A stretch of DNA of 64,000 nucleotides, taken from IMG/VR virus record IMGVR_UViG_3300045988_154391; one strand, 5' to 3'. The DNA is from a virus (taxonomy: Duplodnaviria > Heunggongvirae > Uroviricota > Caudoviricetes). Below, one piece after another: positions 20,699-21,525 of the stretch (its first letter is position 1; each line of letters starts with the position of its first letter). The notes beneath the pieces were generated by a model. It was not told where the DNA came from, made no database searches, and worked only from the letters and a program-made list of their open reading frames with translations. Both the position numbers and the translations under genes were made by a program.

Positions 20699-21277
20699 TT
20701 AAGCAGCATATAACCACTTATCGCCGTTCAATACATGCTCAATAGCCTCACCCTTTTTAAGGCTTATGTATTCCAGGATGGCAGTAATCGCTTGTTCTGC
20801 ACCATACGCAAGAACAACGTAGTAACCTTCCTCTCTAAGCCTGCGCATCCAGGCGATCTGCTCTTTCGTCGGGGCTTTACCATTTGGTTCTTTAAGCTCA
20901 ATTCGCATGCCGTGATAAATACCGCATGCTTTATCGAGACTCATGTCCGGATAACCTTTTTTCTGCCCTTCAGCCTTCATTTTCCCGGCGGTTGCTTTTG
21001 AACGCTTCCCTCCGTTAGGCGTTGCATGCAACAGCTCATAAATTTCAGGGTAATTGCGCTCGAAGTAATCAAAAATGAAAACCTGTTCGTAGTGCTCGCA
21101 ATTTCCTACTCGCAGATCAGGATTTTTTGCCAGTGCTGCAAGCGCCTTCGCATGTGGCGAAACTTCTTTTACCGGGGCAAGTGATAAGAACGGATCCTTT
21201 TTGGGCTTTGGCTTAACCCATCCTTTCTTTCTGCGCTTACTGAAAGCCAGATACTCTTGCTCAGTAAAGCGCAACAC
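20699..21277 (-). CDS. VRR-NUC domain nuclease (PD-(D/E)xK fold)
   Basis: 192 aa; GYPDMSL...E.K pattern typical of VRR-NUC. Confidence 0.5.
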   Translation of the reverse strand: MLRFTEQEYLAFSKRRKKGWVKPKPKKDPFLSLAPVKEVSPHAKALAALAKNPDLRVGNCEHYEQVFIFDYFERNYPEIYELLHATPNGGKRSKATAGKMKAEGQKKGYPDMSLDKACGIYHGMRIELKEPNGKAPTKEQIAWMRRLREEGYYVVLAYGAEQAITAILEYISLKKGEAIEHVLNGDKWLYAA

Positions 21278-21279
21278 AA

Positions 21280-21525
21280 TCAGTCAAATCCTGCCGGTCG
21301 CATGCCATATTTACGCTGTTTTGCGGCCTGCTCTTCCCTGTGCCATTGCGCACACTCAGCGTCACAATAGATGCCTGATTCAATCGGTTCATTGCAGTAA
21401 CGACACTTCCCTGTAAATACCTGACTCACGACCTGTGCCTGCTTTCTGATGTTATCGATGGCCATGTCTTTGAGAGCTTCTAACTGATTCATGCTCAGCT
21501 CTGCATCATCAACACGTTCTGCCAA
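21280..21525 (-). CDS. TraR/DksA-family C4 zinc-finger protein
   Basis: 81 aa; CRYCNEPI...YCDAEC (C-x2-C ... C-x3-C). Confidence 0.55.
   Translation of the reverse strand: MAERVDDAELSMNQLEALKDMAIDNIRKQAQVVSQVFTGKCRYCNEPIESGIYCDAECAQWHREEQAAKQRKYGMRPAGFD

Follow-up and report, generated by a model that had tools for sequence, protein, structure and literature searches.

The neighbouring genes pmgM and pmgL of a P1-like phage-plasmid: a stand-alone VRR-NUC nuclease and a probable short-loop relative of TraR

The pmgM gene of a P1-like phage-plasmid encodes a genuine VRR-NUC nuclease, stand-alone and of the psNUC type. Its direct neighbour pmgL encodes what, judged from its sequence, is probably a divergent short-loop TraR-like zinc protein that binds in RNA polymerase's secondary channel. 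Both are already known genes of a textbook phage; our analysis confirms the assignment of pmgM and refines that of pmgL. Phage P1 is a workhorse, yet its ‘pmg’ genes still carry a placeholder label from 2004. In the P1 annotation pmgL and pmgM (protein accessions AAQ14055 and AAQ14056) are listed with a ‘putative morphogenetic function’, a label for which homology gives no support. Our results do not overturn the current understanding; both protein families and both mechanisms are known. New are the firm assignment of PmgM to the resolvase type, a controlled link between PmgL and the functional helix of TraR together with the differences that define PmgL, and the finding that the two genes form a pair but not a system.

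Results

Locus and alleles

The window, i.e. the whole stretch of 64,000 nt that was analysed, derives from a P1-like phage-plasmid, and positions 20699-21525 are filled exactly by two tandem open reading frames on the minus strand (Table 1). Using megablast, phage P1 matches at 96.5% identity over 1701 nt, and the two genes are annotated there as pmgM and pmgL. In P1, gene content, gene order and control region are the same. The differences are allelic only and concern mostly the basic N-terminal segment of PmgM (the P1 proteins are 97.5-98.8% identical for PmgL and 92.7% identical for PmgM). A core of 973 nt is 100% identical to the E. coli plasmid pET6.1-IncY, and of 5426 complete E. coli genomes, 571 (about a tenth) contain related copies, nearly all of them on plasmids.

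Table 1. Coordinates of genes and control elements at the pmgL/pmgM locus (positions in the window).
Feature	Position	Strand	Remarks
weak C1 operator Oppp/Op83	20676-20692	.	from P1 annotation; 4 mismatches to consensus, read from the sequence; at the pmgM 3' end
pmgM CDS	20699-21277	-	192 aa; GTG start; N-terminal extension of ~58 aa followed by the VRR-NUC (PD-(D/E)xK) core
predicted promoter PpmgN	20705-20731	.	from P1 annotation; inside the pmgM 3' end
pmgL CDS	21280-21525	-	81 aa; TTG start at 21525-21523; TGA stop at 21282-21280
Shine-Dalgarno sequence of pmgL	21532-21537	-	GAGGAA, 6 nt 5' of the TTG; read from the sequence
divergent promoter region	21562-21642	.	P1pmgL and P2pmgL (sigma-70), LPpmgL (late, leftward), LP26 (rightward); predicted by the P1 annotators
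C1 repressor operator (P1 Op82/O26)	21583-21599	+	ATTGCACTAATAATTTT; 2 mismatches to consensus; in the divergent pmgL-26 control region
gene 26 (baseplate)	21672-22049	+	divergent from the pmgL/pmgM pair

The family alignment identifies TTG as the sole start of pmgL that retains the conserved acidic motif at the N-terminus, and the resulting 81-aa form is also called by RefSeq PGAP. Both pmgL and pmgM are real genes under purifying selection and not chance open reading frames, since the 81-aa pmgL frame, including its TTG, is intact in 79 of 80 P1-like IMG/VR loci and the dN/dS values against the window allele are low for both genes (0.05-0.16 for pmgL, 0.16-0.19 for pmgM). The earlier note on this DNA had called for a survey of conservation across P1-like genomes, and for pmgL these counts provide one. 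A first protein search had returned many frameshifted alleles; frequent pseudogenisation of pmgL is ruled out by the count of intact frames, which comes from an unbiased set. Only 2 nt separate the TGA stop of pmgL from the GTG start of pmgM, a spacing typical of translational coupling, and from this arrangement the two genes are probably coupled in translation.

The nuclease PmgM

By sequence as well as by fold, the closest relative of PmgM is the resolvase psNUC from Psychrobacter (PDB 4QBL). In phmmer searches residues 79-180 of PmgM match 4QBL at E 5.8e-17, with an identity of ~30-45% in the core. Foldseek places 4QBL at the top of the matches to the AF2 model of PmgM (pLDDT 89.3; ~70-78 for residues 1-40), with a target-normalised TM score of 0.83 and an E value of 5e-10. 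It is followed by 4QBN and 4QBO, both stand-alone VRR-NUC proteins, by FAN1 and by archaeal Hjc. Model and matches together describe a restriction-endonuclease-like alpha/beta fold that resembles Hjc. Among the family models, phrog_5702 ‘Holliday junction resolvase’ matches PmgM at 4e-27, while Pfam VRR_NUC (PF08774) scores 21.1 bits (E 3.3e-4) and stays below its gathering cut-off of 23.8. More than 100 homologs of PmgM were found; many of them, including many at 47-75% identity, are labelled VRR-NUC or have a precomputed PF08774 match. The RefSeq label for pmgM already reads ‘VRR-NUC domain-containing protein’.

The active site is preserved throughout. Across 30 homologs with identities down to 35%, residues E61, P110-D111, E127, K129 and Q140 are at least 90% conserved, and H62, Q65, the PNGG at 87-90, R92 and the GxPD at 108-111 are likewise invariant or at least 90% conserved. 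These residues correspond to the catalytic signature E / PD / ExK together with the glutamine that is specific to VRR-NUC proteins (Q140 in PmgM), as described by Pennell et al. (PMC4103454). PmgM and psNUC have in common the E / PD / ExK / Q active site as well as the PNGG and GxPD motifs. The VRR-NUC label of the earlier note is thus confirmed by the phmmer match to 4QBL, by the conservation of the active site and by the fold comparison.

The dimeric psNUC binds four-way junctions with sub-nanomolar affinity and cuts them symmetrically, leaving ligatable nicks; it showed canonical resolvase behaviour among the three proteins studied, and behaviour as a junction-cleaving homodimer was shown for psNUC, stNUC and saNUC (PMC4103454). 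The core of PmgM is without the FAN1-type helical insertion that blocks dimerisation, as 125 columns align with the 122 residues of psNUC, and its beta1-beta2 linker is 10 residues shorter than in psNUC. A further difference to psNUC is an extra N-terminal region of ~58 aa in PmgM, modelled as a helix, a lysine-rich linker and a further helix that packs on the core. This extension is common to the phage-plasmid relatives as far as Pseudoalteromonas; among the 425 phage records that match VRR-NUC the majority are without it, their matches starting near residue 60. The extension could alter the oligomeric state or the choice of substrate. Its basic segment is the most variable part of PmgM, with 9 of the 15 differences to P0036, the cluster representative of the common P1-type allele, falling in residues 7-25. 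In a distant Pseudoalteromonas element the PmgM homolog overlaps the recombination gene rdgC located upstream, which fits a recombination role for nucleases of the PmgM type.

The zinc protein PmgL

An exhaustive HMMER search for the PmgL family yielded 39 clusters at E<=1e-3, of which 31 were aligned with PmgL (n=32). All 32 members match phrog_54 ‘DksA-like zinc-finger protein’, PmgL itself over its whole length at 1.7e-13, so a DksA-like label is already available in PHROGs. The curated models behave differently. Pfam zf-dskA_traR (PF01258) has no match at E<=1 in PmgL or its 31 relatives, and the DUF2116 ‘treble clef’ model weakly matches 16 of the 32 members. None of the NCBIfam models, the TraR family model TIGR02419 included, matches PmgL itself; TIGR02419 weakly matches 12 of the 32 family members (best 1.1e-4). 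The HMM searches suggested in the earlier note were therefore successful for both proteins at the PHROG level (phrog_5702 and phrog_54), but gave a sub-threshold score for Pfam VRR_NUC and left PF01258 unmatched.

The link to TraR emerges from comparisons of the whole family. A search of the PDB with the PmgL family profile (hmmsearch) returns TraR (5W1S) as the top match, at E 0.033. Aligned profile against profile with hhalign, the PmgL family and the TraR alignment match with a probability of 95.7% and a P value of 1.1e-8. TraR residues 1-46 are aligned with confidence, and the match runs from end to end if a deletion of 7 residues in the zinc loop is allowed. The reversed TraR alignment, used as a control, yields 0.6%, and 30 column-shuffled TraR alignments yield 0.6% on average and 12.4% at most. 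The N-terminal helix of PmgL, which contains no cysteine, is on its own sufficient for 93.4%.

Several features of this helix agree with TraR. The PmgL family consensus starts with M-x-D-x-x-D-x-A and TraR with MSDEADEA. P1 PmgL reads D6-D7-A8-E9-L10-S11 (DxxExS); it keeps the first aspartate, has glutamate as the second acidic residue and serine in place of alanine. For TraR and Orf73 the DxxDxA motif is indispensable, all tested phage homologs bind RNA polymerase, and the imperfect motifs of P2 Orf82 and Gp34 still function, although more weakly (PMC9239242). The distance from the first aspartate to the first cysteine is 35 residues in PmgL versus 34 in TraR, which indicates that the ‘ruler’ spanning the secondary channel is preserved. 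In the AF2 model (pLDDT 83.6) PmgL consists of a helix at 7-32 (26 residues), a zinc knuckle and a second helix at 56-73. This three-element architecture mirrors that of TraR (N-helix 2-27, globular domain 28-57, C-helix 58-73), and the N-helix has the length of the secondary channel. Foldseek searches with the PmgL model against PDB and BFVD returned no significant TraR or DksA match, a result that is uninformative for so small a protein; the highest-ranking matches, none of them significant, are to MYND fingers, YacG and a phage DUF2116 protein, all of a generic zinc-finger/helix type.

The zinc module sets PmgL apart. Its cysteines are arranged as C41xxC44-x9-C54xxxC58, and all four are invariant in the family, with spacers of x9 to x12 in the relatives. 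The TraR/DksA family is defined by a C4 zinc finger of the type CxxC-x17-CxxC (PMC9239242). Compared to TraR, the zinc loop of PmgL is 7-8 residues shorter (CxxC-x9-CxxxC), and three extra residues are present at the N-terminus. The P45-E46-R49-K50 segment of TraR falls within the deletion and is absent from PmgL, while the equivalent of P43 is retained. In TraR, P43 and P45 contribute to the binding of RNA polymerase; E46, R49 and K50 touch beta-prime Si3, and activation depends on them but inhibition hardly does. As no curated TraR/DksA model passed and the zinc spacing differs, we do not file PmgL as a formal member of PF01258. The ‘TraR/DksA-type’ label of the earlier note thus stands at the profile-profile and PHROG level, but neither at curated Pfam or NCBIfam thresholds nor for the zinc spacing.

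In overall design PmgL resembles TraR of the F plasmid, Orf73 of lambda and Orf82 of P2. All are small proteins with an N-helix bearing an acidic tip, a C4 zinc module and a C-helix, and all are encoded by early-operon accessory genes that are dispensable for growth. Remote relatives of PmgL are encoded in early operons between cro/cII and replication genes, and P2 keeps its TraR homolog Orf82 in a classic early operon (PMC9239242). P1 is not mentioned in this survey of TraR homologs from the Gourse lab.

Transcription control

Rightward from 21672 the window carries the baseplate and tail genes 26, 25, 7, 24, 6 and 5, so the pair is indeed divergent from the baseplate genes, as had been stated. 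The leftward row reads pmgL, pmgM, pmgN, pmgO, pmgP, ppp and pmgQ. The pair, previously placed at the end of a leftward block, is actually the promoter-proximal start of this row.

Compared with P1, the 146-nt intergenic region between pmgL and gene 26 shows three differing positions and zero indels. The promoter coordinates were transferred from the P1 annotation (AF234172) using a constant offset of 16399, no indels being present. The C1 operator of this region is located at the same position as the annotated P1 operator, and the window as a whole contains 11 sites of the C1-operator type, whereas 0.24 are expected by chance. In the P1 annotation the late promoters LP26 and LPpmgL have a common -22 box, with LP26 pointing rightward. 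A simple scan for sigma-70 promoters and terminators found no promoter in the pmgL-26 control region; the promoter assignments therefore rest on the predictions of the P1 annotators. On these predictions pmgL and pmgM are plausibly expressed early, once C1 is lost, as well as late. To describe the locus as an ‘early block’ at an ‘early/late boundary’ was fair but too simple, given that the P1 annotation has C1-repressed sigma-70 promoters as well as a late promoter in front of pmgL. The weak operator Oppp/Op83 and the predicted promoter PpmgN would give pmgN-pmgQ their own start and would make pmgL-pmgM a partly separate unit.

Deletion phenotypes, the third kind of evidence that had been called for, are available from the literature. 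Deletions of pmgL and of pmgM form plaques normally, i.e. both genes are dispensable for plaque formation, and CRISPRi gives efficiencies of plating of 1.3 for pmgL and 0.38 for pmgM (PMC10695390; PMC9024508).

Neighbourhood survey

A degenerate DNA pattern for FCDADCxxD was scanned over IMG/VR and led to 116 diverse phage loci with an open reading frame of the PmgL family. A match to the PmgM profile was present within the fetched flanks (median 8.8 kb) of a single one of these loci. The commonest upstream neighbours of PmgL-type genes are Cro and CII (CP76), and the commonest downstream neighbours are the replication proteins O and P, a DnaC/IstB-like ATPase and a VapE-type primase-helicase. 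PmgL-type genes sit in the replication modules of Achromobacter phage AchV4 and Aeromonas phiA008, where a VRR-NUC gene is absent. Nucleases of the PmgM type also occur without pmgL, namely in an Enterobacter P1 relative with unrelated small open reading frames upstream and in the Pseudoalteromonas element with rdgC upstream. Remote PmgL homologs on short metagenomic contigs offered no usable gene context.

The pair is adjacent in Cronobacter phage JK004 and related contigs, where PmgL is 54% and PmgM 75% identical and where the two genes come after a darB-like operon and do not face baseplate genes. Since the pair persists there despite divergence and a different upstream context, pmgL and pmgM, together with pmgN, pmgP and ppp, are an old syntenic block of the lineage. 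Outside this lineage the link dissolves, with one co-occurrence in 116 loci and each gene type found alone, and PmgL and PmgM are therefore probably independent; their adjacency probably reflects lineage synteny and not a system. The survey speaks against a conserved pmgL-pmgM ‘system’, and the proposal of the earlier note that the two proteins act ‘together’ finds no support in it.

Discussion

The explanation that best accounts for both genes is that they are neighbouring accessory genes of the lytic cycle with separate jobs, PmgM being a junction nuclease of the psNUC type and PmgL a short-loop TraR relative that acts on RNA polymerase. We consider this joint reading somewhat more probable than its negation. 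By analogy to its characterised relatives, PmgM would most likely dimerise and cut Holliday junctions and other branched DNA. It may thereby debranch the replicating and recombining concatemers of P1 ahead of headful packaging. Host resolvases of the RuvC type would probably serve as a back-up, which would explain why pmgM is dispensable. PmgL, in turn, would most likely insert its N-terminal helix with the acidic D-x-x-E tip into the secondary channel of the host RNA polymerase, with the zinc module predicted to sit at the rim of the channel. TraR homologs bind in this channel and need no ppGpp to inhibit rRNA promoters, and the burst size is raised by Orf73 (PMC9239242). PmgL would be expected to damp the promoters of ribosomal RNA and ribosomal proteins, likewise without ppGpp, and so to divert resources to the phage. 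Because PmgL is without the loop by which TraR touches beta-prime Si3 (E46/R49/K50), it may mainly inhibit and not activate. A role in ‘host takeover’, as previously suggested for the two proteins, is plausible for PmgL alone.

PmgL may instead be a generic treble-clef zinc-ribbon protein (of the DUF2116, FCS or YacG-like kind) that binds DNA or another protein, its TraR-like N-helix having arisen by convergence. The failure of zf-dskA_traR in all 32 family members set beside the weak DUF2116 matches in half of them, the zinc spacing outside the TraR/DksA definition and the generic character of the best Foldseek matches all point in this direction. We nevertheless consider it unlikely, because the profile match to TraR lies in the N-helix and not in the zinc module, survives removal of the finger and vanishes in the reversed and shuffled controls. 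Furthermore, the acidic motif stands at the very N-terminus of the family, as it does in TraR, the length of the helix and the Asp-to-Cys spacing match TraR, and more than a third of the family (12 of 32) is touched by TIGR02419. For PmgM the corresponding doubt would be that it is a defence, counter-defence or toxin-type nuclease which degrades host or competitor DNA and is no junction resolvase. VRR-Nuc domains are also used as antibacterial effectors of type VI secretion systems (T6SS) (PMC9635880), and the variable basic N-terminal extension could be viewed in the same light. This reading is very improbable. PmgM has neither an adjacent immunity gene nor a secretion domain, its gene belongs to a conserved phage lytic-cycle module and its closest relative is a resolvase. 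PADLOC models match neither PmgM nor its neighbours, and a defence function for them thus finds no support. Of the recombination and defence roles that had been envisaged for the nuclease, the former is thus upheld in the sense of recombination or DNA processing, its closest characterised relative being a Holliday-junction resolvase, and the latter is not.

A functional union of the two proteins is a further alternative, in which the zinc protein might, for instance, target the nuclease, control it, or anchor it to RNA polymerase where transcription and replication collide. The 2-nt spacing with its likely translational coupling and the adjacency kept in JK004, in spite of the divergence of both proteins and of another upstream context, would be compatible with such a unit. 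We regard it as very improbable in view of the single PmgM-type VRR-NUC among the surroundings of 116 PmgL-type loci, of the PmgM types without pmgL in the Enterobacter and Pseudoalteromonas elements and of the PmgL types that stand alone in the Achromobacter and Aeromonas phages. Stand-alone VRR-NUCs, moreover, are active without any partner (PMC4103454). More specific still is a physical pair in which a TraR-like factor docked in the secondary channel recruits or licenses the junction nuclease at transcription-replication collisions or at R-loop-derived branches during lytic replication of P1, and to this version we give hardly any credence. We rank above it the reading that PmgL founds a ‘short-loop’ TraR subfamily (CxxC-x9-CxxxC), widespread in the early operons of temperate phages, which has kept the inhibitory half of TraR and dropped the Si3-dependent activation. 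The chances of this subfamily reading fall a little short of even.

The preferred reading, separate jobs for PmgM and PmgL, has consequences for P1 biology. As a probable Holliday-junction resolvase, PmgM is a candidate DNA-debranching enzyme for P1, a function absent from the P1 annotation, and relabelling pmgM is relevant to packaging as well as to generalized transduction. If PmgL is a short-loop TraR-like factor, P1 would join the phages that may reprogram the RNA polymerase of their host without ppGpp. Of the leads raised here, only the short-loop subfamily merits experimental work. It would amount to a natural deletion of the TraR segment that is needed for activation and not for inhibition, and it could serve as a ready-made separation-of-function variant. 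In phage P7, where pmgL and pmgM go by the names Upf81.0 (upf81.0) and Upf81.2 (upf81.2), a PmgL of 70 aa is annotated; this form would be without the acidic N-terminal motif.

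Results and discussion

PmgM of the window has 15 amino-acid differences from the common P1-type allele, whose cluster representative is P0036, and they are concentrated near the N-terminus: 9 of them fall in residues 7-25 (window 21200-21260), a variable, lysine-rich segment, while the nuclease core is nearly invariant. Truncated forms of the gene occur in P1 remnants carried by several large plasmids of 116-227 kb (L016 4001-4812 on the E. coli plasmid NZ_CP100919, and the database matches H78-H81). In these remnants an IS3-family element cuts pmgM short after approximately 100 codons, and both pmgL and the baseplate side are missing. 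E. coli assemblies in public databases carry no fewer than six distinct pmgL alleles that are disrupted by a frameshift or an internal deletion (alignment A1); the majority of these move into the overlapping frame ending in ...CDRQDLTDYVALY. Such broken alleles are rare, with a single case in the unbiased sample of 80 P1-like IMG/VR loci (L018-L097).

Outside P1-like phages, VRR-NUC and PmgL-type genes on the same strand, some 530 nt apart, were seen at only one of 116 IMG/VR phage loci with a PmgL-family ORF (L210); here the gene order is opposite to that of P1, with the nuclease gene first. On a Pseudoalteromonas plasmid-like contig (L005 3097-4531) the recombination gene rdgC, at its 3' end, overlaps with the PmgM homolog, and in Achromobacter phage AchV4 (L014) a PmgL homolog shares one early block with rdgC, a dUTPase and a nucleotide kinase. 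In a P1-like contig of Enterobacter hormaechei (L003/L004 3241-3863) unrelated small ORFs of 58, 52 and 79 aa, none with a zinc-finger motif, take the place of pmgL upstream of the VRR-NUC gene.

Downstream of pmgM, the pmgN ORF of the window encodes 62 aa; the P1 annotation gives it 51 aa, and the P7 counterpart, HdmA, has 65 aa. Its family assignment yielded a PHROG of unknown function and nothing further. The gene was scored as essential by CRISPRi (efficiency of plating 1.4e-2), contrary to a deletion survey in which it was non-essential (PMC10695390). A predicted promoter and operator of its own lie directly upstream. The adjoining genes pmgO and pmgP, located upstream of the Ppp phosphatase, overlap by 103 nt. 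Both match Pfam MptE-like (PF01973) below threshold and each matches the other's PHROG (one of them labelled 'alpha-2,3-sialyltransferase'), which suggests that the two are paralogs that have diverged and encode nucleotide-sugar or pyrophosphokinase-like enzymes.

The P1 C1-operator consensus is matched with three or fewer mismatches at 11 sites in the window, against 0.24 expected by chance; matches include those in the table.

Coordinates of genes and C1-operator matches (window positions unless a contig is named)
Feature	Position	Strand	Remark
pmgP	19349-19975	-	adjoins pmgO
pmgO	19873-20535	-	adjoins pmgP
pmgN	20477-20665	-	GTG start
C1-operator match	17910-17926		≤3 mismatches
C1-operator match	17959-17975		≤3 mismatches
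C1-operator matches	32122-32149		overlapping pair, ≤3 mismatches
C1-operator match	35979-35995		≤3 mismatches
VRR-NUC and PmgL-type gene pair	L210 3856-5068	same strand	IMG/VR contig 3300002856_000189
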